Below, piece by piece: positions 39,101-46,057 of a stretch of DNA of 64,000 bases. Source of the DNA: a virus (Duplodnaviria > Caudoviricetes); IMG/VR virus record IMGVR_UViG_2687453341_000008; one strand, written 5' to 3'. Under the pieces are notes generated by a model. It was not told where the DNA came from, ran no database searches, and saw only the letters and a list, made by a program, of their open reading frames with translations. Position numbers and translations under genes: made by a program. How positions within the stretch are numbered: the stretch's first letter is position 1; each line of letters starts with the position of its first letter.

Positions 39101-39275
39101 TCAGTTCTCGGGGTACTGATTCTTGGTGTTGCCGTAGTAGTGGACGAACTTGGTATCGCCCATGCCGAGAATGTGCGTCACGCTGGTATCGATTTGCCCG
39201 AACTCGATCTGTTCGGAGTTGAGCCACTCTTCGATGATCATCTCCTCGGATCCAAACGAATAGTCCGCTACGCCG
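39101..39275 (-). pseudogene. 3' remnant of a gene cut by IS66 (possibly glycosyltransferase)
   Basis: Frame GVADYSFGSEEMIIEEWL...KFVHYYGNTKNQYPEN* starts at the IS66 boundary. Confidence 0.45.
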
Positions 39276-39321
39276 GTAAGCGTACACGACAGGGAGGTAG
39301 CTTTGGCAGGGCGGCTTGGCT

Positions 39322-41049
39322 CTAGGTTTTCTGTCGCTTGAGCTTGGCGGCGACGATTCGGCGCGCACGCGTTAGCTGCTTGCGATCGGATTTGTAGCGA
39401 CTTTCTTCCTCACGATACGTGCGAATTGCCTCGGGATGCTCGCGCTTCCAGACATCAGGCAGCAGCTTCGTGTAATCGGTCTCGCCCGCCAACAAGCGAT
39501 CCAAGACGTCCTTCAAGTACTTCCACACATCGAGGCTATGGCGCTTCGCGCTGCTCACAATGGTCATCAGCCTGGCCGCCCGCTCACCCGATGGGACGTT
39601 CGCGACGAACAGCCAATTCTTCCTGCCCAGGGCGACCTGCCTCATGAGCTGCTCCACTCGGTTATTGTCGATCGGTAGAACCCCATGGCTTGCGTAAGTC
39701 GTTAGCGCATCCCAGTTGTTGCGCAGATAGCCCAAGGCTCCCGCTAAGTCCGACTTCGGGAGGACTTCCGCATCGGTCAAGCTATCGACGTACTTCTTGA
39801 TCACCTCCAAGATCGGTAGCGCATGCTTCTGACGATGCTCCAAGCGCGCTTCAACGTCCATGCCCTGTTCACGCGCATTCACATCGTAAAGTCCTTGAAT
39901 CATCTCAAGCAGCTTCTCGCGGTGGGGATTCTCCTTTGCGACATCGTAGATGGTGCGACGCGCATGCGCCCAACAGGCAGCGAACGTTAATCGATCGCTG
40001 TTATGAAGCACTACCGACGTGTTACCAGAGAAACAGTCCCCTTGAACGATGCATCTACTCTCGCGGAAGAATTCATCAGGGCCATCGCGATGCCGAGAGA
40101 TCCTGAAGTCAAAGATGTTGTAGGGCGATTGATCCAATCCTCGGTAAGCCCACATCTTGCCGATGATGCTGTCTTCCCCTTTGGCTTTCGCTTCGCGGAT
40201 CTTTTCAATCAACCGCTTGAGCTTCAAGTCTCCGGGTTTCTCCTCGGGCATCTCGCGTGGCATCAGCATGCGGCAGCTGCTTTCATCGAGTCCAACTGCC
40301 GAATCCTTCTGAACTCGCTTGGCCATAAAGGCAACCAAGCCTAGCAGAGCGAAGTCGACTTGCTCGACGAGATTCTGCAAGGTGGAGCGATTGGGAGTCC
40401 AGCCACTGCTACCGAAGACATCGGTTTGGCGATACAGCGGTAGATGCATATCGAACTTATGAACGACAACCGCGGCTGCGACACTGGTGTCATACTTGTT
40501 CCCTTCCACCAGCCCTGTGGGGCGCTCGGCGGAAACGACGCCCTGTTCTTTGCAGCAAGTGCACGCGTACTTGGGATATTCCGTCACGCGACGATAGAGC
40601 TTGGCTGGTTCGTAGACAAGCGTCTCGGTCTTGTCGACGTCGATCATGGCCATAGGGCCATGCTTAGGGCAGACACGGTCCTTTTCGGGGACGTCACAAA
40701 GTTGCTTCACTTCGGGGAGGTGAGCGGGGAGCGCCTCGCTCCGTTTTTTCTTGGGTTTCGAAGTGGATTTCGGGGCTGCTTCCTCGAGCAGCTTCTCCGC
40801 TTCTGCTTCGGCTTCCGATCTGGCTTGTTCGAGTTCTTCTTGCGATTCAAATGGGAGCCATGGGCTGCCGCCAGGCGAGATATGCTTCTCCCGCTTCTTG
40901 TGCATAGAAGCGATCATCTTCGCGAGCTTGTGGTACTCGGTCTCGAACCACTCGAGCTTGGTCTTGAGCTGCGCGTTCTCTTTCTGCAGCAGTTCGATCG
41001 CAGATGGAGCGACGGGAGAATCGGTGTTGTTCGAGGTTGCGTCTTGCAT
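39322..41049 (-). CDS. tnpC: IS66 transposase TnpC
   Basis: CPKHG..CTCC zinc finger, [41 protein letters not shown]. Confidence 0.95.
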
Positions 41050-41134
41050 GATGGATAGTACGAAAGAACCACCGATATGGCTCATGAAAATATTGAAAAA
41101 CAGAGGAATAAGTGTAACGATTTTTGGATAAAAA

Positions 41135-41512
41135 TCAGCTCTCAGAACTCTTCGAGACCTTGGGTGCAACGTCGAAGCGTTTGCGCCGTTTGATGTTCGA
41201 TACATCGATCCCTGTGAGCAGCATCGAGAGCTGCGCATGATCGATGATGAGGCTCTTGGAATTACCATCTACGAGCGGCTTCTGGATGCTTCCGGACTCC
41301 AGACGTTTCATGTAAATCGCGAGCCCATCGCGATCCCACCAAATGATCTTCAATCGATCGCGACGACGATTGATGAACATGAAGTAATCACCAAGGCGAA
41401 TATCGCGAGCGAACTCCGATTGGACGATCGCATGCAAGCCGTCGTAGGAACGTCTCATATCGACAGCCTGCATATAGAGATAAACTCGCGCGGTGGAAGC
41501 AACAGCAAGCAT
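41135..41512 (-). CDS. tnpB: IS66 accessory protein TnpB
   Basis: [34 protein letters not shown]. Confidence 0.95.
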
Positions 41513-41519
41513 CGCAATC

Positions 41520-41861
41520 TCACTCACAAACGATGAGTTGTTTAAAGCCGGACTCTTGATGTTGTGTGGCCCAAGCCAGCACGGTGTTGATCGCTTCGAG
41601 CGACTTGGCCTGGACTTCGATCTTGATTCCCCGCGCTTCAATGAGGAAGCGAACGACGCCAGCGTCGACATCAGGCAATGGAGTCGAAGGGACGTTTGGT
41701 GTGGTGGCGGCAAGGCTCTGATCAAGCTTCTTTCGCCAATAGCTGAAGACTTGTAGGTTGATCTTCTCGTTGCGGCAGAACTGAGAGATGCTGAGACCTG
41801 ATCGTCGAAAGCGATCGAGGCGAGAAGCCCATAGCTGGGCTTTAGAAGTATCACGCGGCAT
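41520..41861 (-). CDS. tnpA: IS66 accessory protein TnpA
   Basis: SGLSISQFCRNEKI....FSYWRKKL HTH. Confidence 0.9.
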   Translation of the reverse strand: MPRDTSKAQLWASRLDRFRRSGLSISQFCRNEKINLQVFSYWRKKLDQSLAATTPNVPSTPLPDVDAGVVRFLIEARGIKIEVQAKSLEAINTVLAWATQHQESGFKQLIVCE

Positions 41862-41970
41862 GTTCGGTGCTCCATCGGTTGAACGCGGCAGCCACCATGG
41901 CCGCCGCTACCGAACACTACAACCGAAATCAAGACCGCGCCGGGACCGAAACGACTGGTGCTGGCGTACG

Positions 41971-41994
41971 ACTATGTAGTCTTGTGTCGGGCAA
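41971..41994 (-). promoter_or_regulatory. Half of circle-junction promoter (-35 TTGCCC; -10 TAGAAT forms on circularisation)
   Basis: Minus strand TTGCCC (41994-41989), 17 nt, T(41971) joined to AGAAT (43728-43724). Confidence 0.75.
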
Positions 41995-42249
41995 GGGGGT
42001 TTAGGATATTTTTTTCGATCGGTTGTATGTTTGGGCGCAGCAGCCATCGGTTTCGCGTTGCGAAATGAGTTCCTAAGTGTGGGCCTTCGTCGGAGCCGAT
42101 TTTCGGTCGCTCACCCCGGCGAAGTGAGTCTTCGAACGGAGCGAATGGCGACTGAAAATCGAGCGTAGGCGATGGACCACACAGGGCCTTTGTTGGTGAG
42201 ATTTGAGGTAGTAACAGTTCTCTTCTTAGGTTCTTGCTAAGCCTTCGAT

Positions 42250-42480
42250 CATGCTGAAACCACGATAGGATTTAAACGACTATTCGAGTTGTTCGTAGGG
42301 TCGCAGGGCATTATGCGTGCGATGCGACAGCGTTTCACTACGATCTCATGAGTCCATGCAATACCTCACGTTGGCTTATTCGCTTACACGATGTGTTCGC
42401 CGGAGGCGACATCAGTACGCCAGCAAGCTCTACGCGAGGTTTTTGGCCTTTCGGGTCCTTATGGTTTCTGCGTCTGGGCT
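42250..42480 (-). ncRNA. Predicted bridge/seek RNA of the IS1111-type element (ends approximate)
   Basis: Two stem-flanked loops carrying TGCTGGCGTAC and GTAAGCG (match target) and CATGGACTC and ATAGTCG (match element ends). Confidence 0.8.
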
Positions 42481-42538
42481 TTGCAAAAGGGTTGTTAAAC
42501 TGTTTTTCTCAACTCTGGGAAAATGTTCTTGAGTGGGC

Positions 42539-43630
42539 TCACGCGGTGTTGGTTGCGGTTGACTGCGGGGCAGCTTGGCCCATTGTCTTGGTTTGCGGTG
42601 GTGACCAGATCGCTCCATCGCGAAGCATGGCCCAGGCTGTCACCAATATCTTGCGCGCGACAGCAATGATTGCTTGCTTCTTACGCGATTTGGAACCGCC
42701 TCGTACACGGTCATACAAGGCTTTGAAGTGTGGGTTGAAGCGGATAGCACACCAAGCAACTTCGGTGAGTACCGAACGAAGCAATCGCGGTCCGCGACGA
42801 CTGATACGATTCTGGCGATCCATCTTGCCGCTTTGCCATTTTTTGGGAGCCAGCCCAGCGTAAGAGCTAACTTTACGTGCACTCTCAAAACGTTTAGCAT
42901 CGTCGATATGCGCAACAATCACTTGAGAACCGACAACGCCAACACCTGGTATCGATTGGACAATCTCGATACGTGGATCGGGCTTGGAGATTATTGCCAA
43001 TTGCTTCTCAATACGCCGCATGAGTTTCAGCGTTGCTACCAAATGCGTCAGCTGCACATCGAGAGTACCTCGCCAATACTCCGATGCGGTGCATTTCTCG
43101 AAGGGTTTTCGGAGTTTGCCAAGATCGTTTTCAATATAGCTCTTGGACCATGCGGTTTTGCCAGCAGCACACTCTTCACCTTGGGCCATTAGATTCGATC
43201 GAATGGCGTTCTGAGTTGCTGTAGCCTGCGCTTGAAGCTTCTTACGATAACGGACTAATTGCTGAAATTGGCGATGCTCAGGTGAAGGTATATGGACGGA
43301 GTTGATTTCGTTATTTCTGGCCATTTTAGCGAGCTTGAGTGCATCGTCTTTGTCGGTCTTGCGTTTGACCTTTCCCCATTGCCAAGCTTCGCCACCGGGG
43401 TGAGCGACCAGTACTTCAATGCCAAGTTTACGAGCCAGATCCACAACCCAACCGGAGAGCCCGCAAGATTCGAATACGAGTAGCGACGGTTTCACGTCAA
43501 CAAGAAATTGTTCAAACGTTTTTGGATGAGTCATGATGGTTTTGAAAACCGGTACCGAACTGTGATCCTCGGTCAGCAGGCAGGATGCTGTCTTGAATTT
43601 TCCGAGATCGAGAGCGAGAATTGTTTGCAT
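42539..43630 (-). CDS. IS110-family DEDD recombinase
   Basis: LALDLGK, VFES, KTDKDDA, SIPGVG, SSYAGLAP...QSG motifs. Confidence 0.95.
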   Translation of the reverse strand: MQTILALDLGKFKTASCLLTEDHSSVPVFKTIMTHPKTFEQFLVDVKPSLLVFESCGLSGWVVDLARKLGIEVLVAHPGGEAWQWGKVKRKTDKDDALKLAKMARNNEINSVHIPSPEHRQFQQLVRYRKKLQAQATATQNAIRSNLMAQGEECAAGKTAWSKSYIENDLGKLRKPFEKCTASEYWRGTLDVQLTHLVATLKLMRRIEKQLAIISKPDPRIEIVQSIPGVGVVGSQVIVAHIDDAKRFESARKVSSYAGLAPKKWQSGKMDRQNRISRRGPRLLRSVLTEVAWCAIRFNPHFKALYDRVRGGSKSRKKQAIIAVARKILVTAWAMLRDGAIWSPPQTKTMGQAAPQSTATNTA

Positions 43631-44014
43631 GGTCGTGAGTCTCTGGGCAGAAGGGAATTGAAACGGTTATATCAATAGCCTACCGAACTCAGCGTTCGGC
43701 TGCCCGACTCATGACTTACATGGATTCTCTTACTATGCACCTACGTCTTGCACCAAGAAACGAGGATCACCAAGCGAGCGACAAGCTCGATGGATGTCTG
43801 ATAGACCGTCGCAAGCCAGAAAATCGAGGTAGAACCAACTCACAATACTACAGAAACGCCCAAAGAGATCGCCAGTTTGCACCGAAGTGAGTCCAAGCAC
43901 ATCGATTGCATGAGCTGTGCCTCAGAGAAACTCGCGCCGCACCATCAACTCGCCTAATAGCGCCGAGTTCTCGAACGCTTTTCTCCAGAATGTTCTGCAG
44001 CGCCGAAGAGCTAC

Positions 44015-46057
44015 TCACTCACGAACACCCGTGTCGTAAAGTACATAGTTTCCAGAACTAAAGTCTTCGTTTCTGCGGAACGATGGATGAGCATCAAGCT
44101 CTTCGTAAGCATTACGATATCGGGCTATCTCCTGTTTCGTTTCCATTTGCGCCACAACGATGTCTATTTTATCTCTCGTGACAATATTCATCGCATGGTC
44201 TATATTGTAGAACAACATGGGCTGTGTCACAAAATATTGACGTCGCGACCCGAAAAACGGGTACGACCTCTCATCAAACACTAATACTCGATGCGGATTC
44301 TTATCGAACCTCGTAAAAACTGCAGAACGACTATAGCGATAAAAATGTTCAGCAAGCCCCTCATGCCAACGACGCTCTAAATAAGCGATCCCTATCGCAG
44401 CCGACACAGCCAATGCAACAGCGACAGTAGCCCGCTTCAATAATGCATAACGATACGGGGGGCGACAAACAATACCCATGTAGCTGAGTTGCACAACAGG
44501 AATAATCAAGAATATTGCGATACTAACCCCAAGCCATTGTGCGATGCGGAATTGAGAAATACTTGTAATCAGGTACACGGTAGGAGCTCCGCCTATCAAG
44601 AGCAAGGTGCCGTTTTCCAGCACGGGGTATCTGGCAATTACTATCGACAATCCTTTTGCTATACCAAAAAACCCCAATAACAATGAAAAAACCCAAAACG
44701 TTAAACCGTATCTCGCTGTAGTATAACCCCAACGAAGATGATTTAATGTTCCTGGCTGATCCTCGACAAGCATTGGCGTAATTAACAATACCACTCCGCA
44801 GGAAAAATATGGTAATGTCCATTCAGCGACAATATTCCAAGAACGAGTGCGCCGGGACGACAAGGCAAAAAGCACGGTACTCGGTGCCACACCAAACGCG
44901 AACAGCATTGCCAGACCAAAGTGCTTCGCAATTGCAGCGAGCACAAGATCCATTGTTTGCCAGTTTAGGTGATACAAGAGAGTTGTTCGATGAATACCGG
45001 GGTATGGCACTCGGTCTGTAAAATCACTTGATCCAATTGGGTAGAACGGATTGCCTGTCATCACGAAATTGCGTCCAAACCAAAAAGCTCCGATTGAGAT
45101 AAATGGGACAACAAACCCGATCCAATTGCTTGCCGAGACGGCATTGCGGTCCACTCCTCGCAATGAACGAACGACGAGCAATGAAGGAAGAATGATCGCA
45201 TAAGGAATCGCATAGTATTTAATGCCGACAAGAACTCCCGTCGTAATGCCAAATAGAAGAAAAGCCATCTGACCACGAAAGCGAGTGAGTTCGTAATACG
45301 CAAGGGAAGCGAAGAAAAAGGACGCCACTGGCAAATCATTGGAAGCATCAATCGTCTGACGCATTGTGACCAAGCTTGCGACGGAAAGAAAAGCAGCTAG
45401 GTATTGCCATTTGCACCTGAGCCCCAATCGTTTAGATAAAACTACGATTGAACAAAAGAGAATCAGAACCGCAGGCAGGTTGTTCAATGCAATCAAATAA
45501 TCCCCCGAGAAGGGAACTGCAAACCACGCACCCAATAATTCACTCGTTGCTGGCATTGACCACCGTGCAGAATGCGTCGAATACAAACTCTCTGCTTGTA
45601 TCCAGTGATCGATAAACGGCAGGTGATACATCAGATTGTCCCAATCCGATGGCCAACGCAGGAACCCATTCAAAAGAATGTTTCCAGCAAGTAATGAAAT
45701 CGCCACCCATGAAATGAAGTATACGAATCGACATCTTTTCCGTGTCTTCGATCTCGTTTTGGTCGTATGTAACCCATTGTATCGATACAAGAGAATGCGG
45801 AGCACGATCGCGGTAAGGCCCACGGACGCAAGAACTCCGAATCGATGAAAGATTACGAATCCACCGGCTATGAACTCGGCAACTAACAATATACCGACGT
45901 AGAGCACGCACATGTGCAAAAGTCGTTCAGCTCCATAACAACGAGGACACAAAGCGAGCATAGCGCCACGAACCACTTGGAACACTAGATAGTTAATAGC
46001 TATCCAGACAATCGCAACACCTGCGTCCCCTGTGGTCAGAGATTCAATTATATCCAT
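44015..46057 (-). CDS. Polytopic membrane protein, GT-C/ArnT-like glycosyltransferase candidate
   Basis: Many TM helices; WDNLMYHLP, SNDL, GIKY, WFGRNFVMTGNPFYP motifs. Confidence 0.65.
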   Translation of the reverse strand: MDIIESLTTGDAGVAIVWIAINYLVFQVVRGAMLALCPRCYGAERLLHMCVLYVGILLVAEFIAGGFVIFHRFGVLASVGLTAIVLRILLYRYNGLHTTKTRSKTRKRCRFVYFISWVAISLLAGNILLNGFLRWPSDWDNLMYHLPFIDHWIQAESLYSTHSARWSMPATSELLGAWFAVPFSGDYLIALNNLPAVLILFCSIVVLSKRLGLRCKWQYLAAFLSVASLVTMRQTIDASNDLPVASFFFASLAYYELTRFRGQMAFLLFGITTGVLVGIKYYAIPYAIILPSLLVVRSLRGVDRNAVSASNWIGFVVPFISIGAFWFGRNFVMTGNPFYPIGSSDFTDRVPYPGIHRTTLLYHLNWQTMDLVLAAIAKHFGLAMLFAFGVAPSTVLFALSSRRTRSWNIVAEWTLPYFSCGVVLLITPMLVEDQPGTLNHLRWGYTTARYGLTFWVFSLLLGFFGIAKGLSIVIARYPVLENGTLLLIGGAPTVYLITSISQFRIAQWLGVSIAIFLIIPVVQLSYMGIVCRPPYRYALLKRATVAVALAVSAAIGIAYLERRWHEGLAEHFYRYSRSAVFTRFDKNPHRVLVFDERSYPFFGSRRQYFVTQPMLFYNIDHAMNIVTRDKIDIVVAQMETKQEIARYRNAYEELDAHPSFRRNEDFSSGNYVLYDTGVRE

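Follow-up and report, generated by a model that had tools for sequence, protein, structure and literature searches.

What directs one insertion sequence (IS) into the tip of another, at a fixed position and in a fixed orientation? The question is raised by positions 41971-43728 of the IMG/VR virus record IMGVR_UViG_2687453341_000008 (Duplodnaviria; Caudoviricetes), a stretch of 64,000 nucleotides referred to here as the window; the genome to which it belongs is denoted G000. A first-pass annotation had proposed that an IS1111-type element in this interval is steered by its own RNA to the terminal repeat of a resident IS66-family element. From the analysis below, the interval is very probably an intact member of the IS1111 group (IS110 family), with a 3' non-coding region encoding a guide RNA of the bridge or seek type. 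The guide-RNA mechanism of IS110/IS1111 elements was established in 2024 (PMC11187229, PMC11208160).

The flanks of the element were compared with the ends of the resident IS66. Positions 41959-41970 read TGCTGGCGTACG and positions 43729-43733 read CTTAC. On the minus strand, 43733-43729 is GTAAG and the letters from 41970 downward are CGTACGCCAGCA, giving the rejoined end GTAAG^CGTACGCCAGCA (^, junction). The reverse complement of the joined flanks, GTAAGCGTAC..., equals positions 39276-39285 at the other IS66 end. IS66-family terminal inverted repeats start GTAA(GCG), and both ends of the window IS66 read GTAAGCGTAC. The IS66 genes are arranged tnpA-tnpB-tnpC on the same strand as the inserted element, and the insertion lies 5 bp inside the tnpA-side inverted repeat. 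Excising 41971-43728 yields the 17-mer GTAAGCGTACGCCAGCA, which was found uninterrupted and without mismatch eight times in G101, a related Pirellulaceae chromosome and the genome behind the locus L054. All eight occurrences are the first bases of IS66 copies that are 98.5-98.6% identical to the window IS66 over the 1512 bp compared, and the outside flanks differ for all eight. The coordinates, the sequence strings and the restored IS66 end given by the first-pass annotation were all borne out, and an empty site is at hand in G101.

A junction of this kind could also be inherited, if IS66 and the IS1111-type element moved as a composite or if IS66 landed beside an older IS1111 copy. The same junction is indeed present at two places in G000, in a second genome and in metagenome contigs. 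The second G000 copy (G000:C1:2034744-2036501) is 100% identical over 1758 bp and occupies the same position in a diverged IS66, a short relic with about 70 tnpA codons; the IS66-side flanks of the two copies, by contrast, are 88% identical over 259 bp only. Identity between the two loci stops exactly at the IS66 tip, 43733. Since the element is young and identical at both loci while the targets are old and diverged, the two loci point to separate insertions and not to a moved composite. In G101, the third insertion (L054) has an element 98% identical to that of the window. It occupies the equivalent position in a ninth copy of IS66, whose outside flank differs. The IS66 repeat is completed by GTAAG beyond the far end of the element, just as it reads in the eight uninterrupted copies, and relatives of the element have landed in different IS66 members and at ends of the other type. 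An inherited junction is largely refuted by the diverged flanks and the uninterrupted IS66 ends, and we regard it as barely credible. Homing to IS66 ends, as first proposed, was supported: the insertions in the window, in the second copy and at L054 are independent, and two relatives lie in the tnpC-side ends of other IS66 members. Contigs crossing the IS66/element junction at 41970/41971 were present in three of the four public runs examined, all of which consist of contigs, and several contigs end at 43733. A third G000 copy is partial, comprising the last 319 bp at 96% identity (G000:C1:106991-107308) and cut at the equivalent of window position 42289.

Membership of the IS1111 rather than the IS110 group is recognised by subterminal repeats, terminal extensions of 7 bp and 3 bp, and a long downstream region (PMC11187229, PMC11208160). 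The single long open reading frame (ORF) of the window element runs from 43630 to 42539 on the minus strand, and its product matches the Pfam domains DEDD_Tnp_IS110 (PF01548, E 9e-15) and Transposase_20 (PF02371, E 2.4e-26). This transposase has 1765 homologues at E <= 1e-20; the nearest protein cluster is P0001 (91% identity, 165 member sequences), followed by P0002 and P0003. Non-coding DNA amounts to 98 bp upstream of the gene and 568 bp downstream. The minus-strand sequence of the element opens with AGAATCC-ATGTAAGTC... and closes with ...GACTACAT-AGT. Its subterminal repeats are imperfect (41978-41993 pairs with 43701-43716, 16 nt, 88%) and are extended by ATGTA/TACAT. Insertion is fixed in position and orientation, without target duplication, and the same junctions were seen in the window copy, the second copy and L054. 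The domains, subterminal repeats, extensions, downstream region and fixed insertion expected of an IS1111-type element were thus all found.

The minus strand of 42480-42250 is predicted to form a long closing helix enclosing two stem-loop domains (single-sequence fold, z = -2.78; consensus of eight relatives). The first is a candidate target-binding loop, whose 5' segment reads UGCUGGCGUAC. Positions 42425-42415 (minus) are TGCTGGCGTAC, the same as 41959-41969, and positions 42387-42381 (minus) are GTAAGCG, that is, GTAAG followed by the CG with which the flank begins. The two putative guides bracket the inner hairpin. The one that matches the top strand comes 5' of the one that matches the bottom strand, and in the target their matches share one letter. 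IS1111 seekRNAs have a top-strand match 5' of a bottom-strand match, overlapping in the target (PMC11187229). The letters TGC (UGC in the RNA) that open the 11-letter 5' guide are invariant in all eight relatives whatever their flank. Because they never vary they are probably scaffold, and the working 5' guide is more likely to be 8 nt long (42422-42415). The flank match claimed for this guide stood, and its full length of 11 nt is doubtful.

Such matches could be coincidental, or leftovers of recombination, if the transposase protein alone read the site. When the 568-nt non-coding region was compared with the 40-bp rejoined target, an exact match of at least 11 nt arose in 13 of 2000 dinucleotide shuffles (0.65%) and a 7-nt match in 76%; the longer match is thus uncommon without being rare, and the shorter one is not significant alone. 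The weight of the argument falls for this reason on the position of the guides and on their covariation with the flanks. Relatives with 83-98% DNA identity were taken from genome and metagenome collections and comprised seven distinct full guide sets, that of the window included. The 8-letter 5' guide matched its own flank at 8/8 letters in the window and at 7/8 in each of L055, L056, L085 and L087, against 0-6 of 8 for non-cognate pairs of guide and flank. In L087 the 3' guide is GAGAGCG and the flank GAGAG+CG (7/7), the target being GAGAG^CGTACAATCG. The target domain has 15 variable columns; nine of them fall within the 15 guide columns, and six are spread over the remaining 64. The relatives L055, L086 and L089 share the same guides, which predict GTAAGCGTACACGGGCA; the first 13 letters of this prediction are those of the other end of the window IS66. 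Judged from these alignments, the proposal that an RNA chooses the target is supported by five of the seven guide sets, in which guide letters change with the flanks, with L086 and L089 as exceptions. Guides and flanks change together in five relatives on an otherwise invariant scaffold, and the arrangement is that of experimentally proven seekRNAs (PMC11187229) and bridge RNAs (PMC11208160); recognition by protein alone is, on this evidence, highly improbable.

The second stem-loop domain is a candidate donor-binding loop. Positions 42358-42350 (minus) are CATGGACTC, matching CATGGATTC in the left end (43719-43727) at 8 of 9 letters. Positions 42283-42277 (minus) are ATAGTCG, which matches the right end plus the flank letters CG (ATAGT+CG) at 7/7 and the simple end-to-end circle junction (ATAGT+AG) at only 6/7. 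The guide columns of this loop are invariant in eight relatives, and the second segment with its surroundings, CGAATAGTCGTTTAA, is kept in an otherwise diverged second IS family that has the same end sequences. As the ends of the element are themselves invariant, the pattern is one of conservation and not of covariation. By position, each 3' guide has CG as its last two letters, and each 5' guide opens on the second letter of that CG. The first two bases of the left extension, AG, sit where the target has CG. The core would accordingly be a dinucleotide that reads CG in the target but AG in the donor, with the mismatch at its first letter giving a left junction AG and a right junction CG, and the second loop would read the element's own ends.

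The first base of the element is A or C among relatives (left ends of L063, L065, L070, L071 and L039), AGAATCC alternating with CGAATCC, as would be expected if the core were CG and its left copy were assigned to the element. The second IS1111-like family has a length of 2169 bp and a transposase of 445 aa, with three copies in G000 (G000:C1, about 1027150-1029320, 2333970-2336140 and 5574170-5576340) and at least eight in G101. Its ends are the same as those of the window element (AGAATCCATGTAAGTC... and ...CATAGT) and its flanks differ, reading (A/G)AA^CG...; behind one of the copies lies a duplicated solo right end. When a target loop was sought by eye in this family, the sole match to its left flank was 6 nt long. 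Two candidate distant relatives, L113 and L114, are fragments.

The landing sites of the clade were assessed from the copies with visible flanks. Right flanks were visible in nine copies. Five are IS66 ends, on the tnpA side in the window, the second copy and L054, and on the tnpC side of other IS66 members in L085 and L089, where the C-terminal end of IS66 TnpC reads toward the junction. Two lie elsewhere (L055 and L086), and L056 and L087 have flanks of only 57 and 70 bp, which do not allow a call. The 14 distinct left flanks comprise seven with GTAAG, three with GAGAG, two with GTGAG, and one each with GTATG and GGATG. The expectation that copies would be flanked by IS66 ends was confirmed for five of the seven assessable copies and failed for L055 and L086. 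The choice of the tnpA side held for the window element (3/3 insertions; its guide matches the other, tnpC-side end at 6/8 letters, and that end is unoccupied) and did not hold as a rule for the clade.

In two metagenome contigs, L088 (1-845) and L090 (128-2610), a transposase gene of the clade is cut at about element position 530 and is followed directly by IS66, represented by a C-terminal piece of TnpC and, in L090, then by tnpA, tnpB and tnpC. IS66 and the clade elements therefore also interrupt each other in reverse.

A number of observations count against an RNA-guided element aimed at IS66 ends. L055 and L086 have no IS66 coding sequence in flanks of 2.4 kb and 0.85 kb, respectively. 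L086 matches its own flank at 1/8 letters, with its 3' guide mismatched too, and L089 at 5/8, although GTAAG+CG is perfect there. The flank of the partial G000 copy has only GCGTACG in common with the IS66 end, and no IS66 protein match was found near G000:C1:106991-107308. G101 has nine matching IS66 ends, of which one is occupied, so that targeting is not saturating. The donor loop is read from conservation, has one mismatch (8/9) and uses a CG that belongs to the flank. A search of Rfam returned nothing at E <= 1 in 41800-43900, and a promoter scan upstream of the loops found one site, inside the second loop, against 1.2 expected. Contigs from two public RNA libraries cover the element in part (25 and 28 of 30 bins), but libraries of this kind may hold DNA and their contigs come without ends or strand; they give no evidence of transcription, and gaps in the coverage carry no meaning.

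Several of these points would be accounted for if the sole address were a short one, roughly GTAAG^CGTAC and a few further letters, IS66 being hit as a multi-copy carrier with no special relation to the element and the insertion having no effect of consequence for either. Such an address would cover L055, L086 and the partial copy, all outside detectable IS66, the redirection of L087 to GAGAG^CGTACAATCG, and the single occupied end among nine in G101. Against it, the IS66 ends among the assessable right flanks include both end types and at least three IS66 members, and half of the distinct left flanks (7/14) are GTAAG. Moreover, the only good sites in G000 (<=2 mismatches to the 17-mer) are IS66 tips; a scan of that genome found no such site beyond the two already occupied. 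We consider an address without regard to IS66 rather unlikely.

The reading in which RNA guides the element to IS66 ends may be set out as follows. One internal RNA loop would carry two short target guides, of which UGGCGUAC would pair with the top strand just right of the crossover and GUAAGCG with the bottom strand across it. The two together would spell GTAAG^CGTACGCCA, which is how the resident IS66 reads at the tip of its tnpA-side inverted repeat. The recombinase would insert the circular element there in one orientation and without target duplication, leaving the IS66 repeat split, with its outer 5 bp on the far side of the element. The guide RNA would be made and bound, and precise excision would be expected by analogy with the family. 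As judged from the split repeat, the insertion would block IS66 transposition until such excision takes place. The fuller proposal is that the clade, which is placed in the Pirellulaceae by named relatives and of which near-identical copies also occur in metagenome contigs, is an RNA-guided hyperparasite of IS66 with loops that track diverged tips, in tnpA-side and tnpC-side variants, and that it acts as a reversible brake on IS66. This we put forward tentatively, at less than even confidence. G000 has one full-length IS66 of the window type, which is occupied, and four short relics; compared with the one occupied end of nine in G101, this is in line with a brake and far from proof of one.

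IS66 tips would offer a safe landing site, being multi-copy, dispensable and mobile, by the same logic as that of IS4321 and IS5075 in Tn21 ends. Partridge and Hall are said to have reported in 2003 that these two elements lie in terminal inverted repeats belonging to Tn21-type transposons. Like the window element, they reportedly belong to the IS1111 group, have subterminal repeats and insert within another element's terminal repeat, in one orientation and at one position. Their target is the 38-bp repeat of the Tn21 family in Proteobacteria, whereas that of the window element is the GTAAGCGTAC tip of IS66, with relatives in the Pirellulaceae.

A related arrangement is that of ISEc11, ISKpn4, ISPa11 and ISPst6, which have the guide RNA downstream of the transposase and the same guide order and overlap as found here (PMC11187229). 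The targets of the window element differ from theirs, and the function of its guides is putative. Compared with the seekRNA elements of that paper, the window element has a longer non-coding region (568 bp) with an extra conserved structured block. Natural redirection by changes of guide letters only was described there for ISEc11 versus ISXne4, and the relatives of the window element follow the same pattern. The two-loop logic of the IS621 bridge RNA (PMC11208160), in which one loop addresses the target and another the donor and the paired guides of each read opposite strands and overlap at the core, resembles that proposed for the window element. IS621, however, is an IS110-group element that encodes its RNA at the left end and has CT as its core. 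The window element has its RNA at the right end and an apparent core of CG (target) or AG (donor), and its target guides have only one core letter in common.

Another element, labelled ISSso6 in RefSeq, was examined in four copies, two on a Shigella sonnei plasmid and two in Escherichia coli chromosomes; the left flank is GTAAG in three and ATAAG in one. The annotation neighbouring these copies contains no IS66 gene, and the right flank carries no IS66 label. A guessed query for the uninterrupted end gave no match with fewer than three mismatches, and the passages on ISSso6 examined in the literature make no mention of its target. ISSso6 is a distant relative, the IS110-family matches in Shigella being about 36% identical over a third of the transposase, and no plasmid record matched the window transposase at >= 60% identity.

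A literature search that covered neither supplementary target tables nor ISfinder found no description of an IS110/IS1111 element targeting IS66 ends. IS66 is unmentioned in the main text of PMC11187229 and PMC11208160, whose supplementary tables may list such cases. The mechanism and the landing in transposon ends were already known; the targeting of IS66 ends is unpublished as far as could be found.

Table. Coordinates of the IS1111-type element, its putative guide RNA and the interrupted IS66 in the window
Feature	Position	Strand	Basis
IS1111-type insertion sequence, 1758 bp	41971-43728	minus	bounds from the uninterrupted target in 8 IS66 copies and from copies in differing flanks
Left terminal extension, 7 bp, AGAATCC (minus strand)	43722-43728	minus	junction comparison among copies
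Left subterminal inverted repeat	43701-43721	minus	pair I3 (16 nt, 88% complementary) and adjacent ATGTA/TACAT
Transposase gene, 363 aa	42539-43630	minus	Pfam
3' non-coding region, 568 bp, with putative guide RNA gene	41971-42538	minus	conserved in relatives except guide letters
Target-binding stem-loop domain (predicted): outer stem, internal loop, inner hairpin	42363-42440	minus	single-sequence and consensus folds
5' target guide (putative)	42415-42425	minus	flank match, covariation
3' target guide (putative), GUAAGCG = left flank GTAAG + CG	42381-42387	minus	flank match, covariation
Candidate donor-binding domain with CAUGGACUC (42358-42350) and AUAGUCG (42283-42277)	42277-42358	minus	consensus fold, conservation
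Distal structured block, about 125 nt	42078-42205	minus	conserved across IS lineages and genomes
Right subterminal inverted repeat	41974-41993	minus	pair I3
Right terminal extension, 3 bp, AGT (minus strand)	41971-41973	minus	junction comparison
Tip of the IS66 tnpA-side inverted repeat (GTAAG, outermost 5 bp), separated by the insertion	43729-43733	minus	identity with flank of second copy stops exactly here
Remainder of IS66-family element, including the other inverted repeat, beginning at 39276	39276-41970	minus	Pfam, end reading
orf113, probable tnpA, 113 aa	41520-41861	minus	without Pfam match; common to other IS66 relics
TnpB_IS66 domain	41189-41488	minus	Pfam
tnpC, 648 aa, DDE_Tnp_IS66 with its C-terminal element and zf-IS66	39322-41268	minus	Pfam

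The distal structured block of the non-coding region is 75-90% identical across different IS1111-like lineages in several genomes of the family, the rest of these elements having diverged; it is also present in L007, L026, L030, L033, L081, L082, L084 and others. Its consensus fold has 30 pairs, five of them with compensatory changes, for example CGATTGTC/GACAATCG versus CGCTTGTC/GACAAGCG, and CCATTC/GAATGG. No Rfam family matches the block. A perfect 15-nt complement between 42105-42119 and 43395-43409, the latter in the transposase gene, was considered as a means of antisense control and was rejected; relatives have changed on one side only, and it is probably not a conserved pairing.

Transposition of IS66-family elements gives an 8-bp target duplication. 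The window IS66 lacks one, with CTACGCCG at 39268-39275 and TATGCACC at 43734-43741. The missing duplication suggests later rearrangement, or recombination between copies, rather than that the element falls outside the IS66 family. Just outside the IS66 tip, the sequence 43734-43800 recurs at ten or more genomic positions with about 87-94% identity; several of these repeats lie 8.6-11.6 kb apart in G000 at 2.607-2.647 Mb, which resembles a large tandem array. The adjacent ORF of 680 aa (44015-46057, minus strand) has no Pfam match.

The boundaries of the element and of the IS66 that it interrupts are now exact, which is useful for annotation, and the insertion accounts for broken-looking IS66 ends in these genomes. 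The clade offers a natural example of the programmability demonstrated in the laboratory in 2024, in that close relatives differ almost only in their guides and sit in correspondingly different sites. With it, the landing habit of IS1111 elements is extended from Tn21-type transposons to IS66 insertion sequences, and from Proteobacteria to genomes of planctomycete type. If the insertion truly blocks the movement of IS66, one mobile element would here be held in check by another by means of an RNA address.

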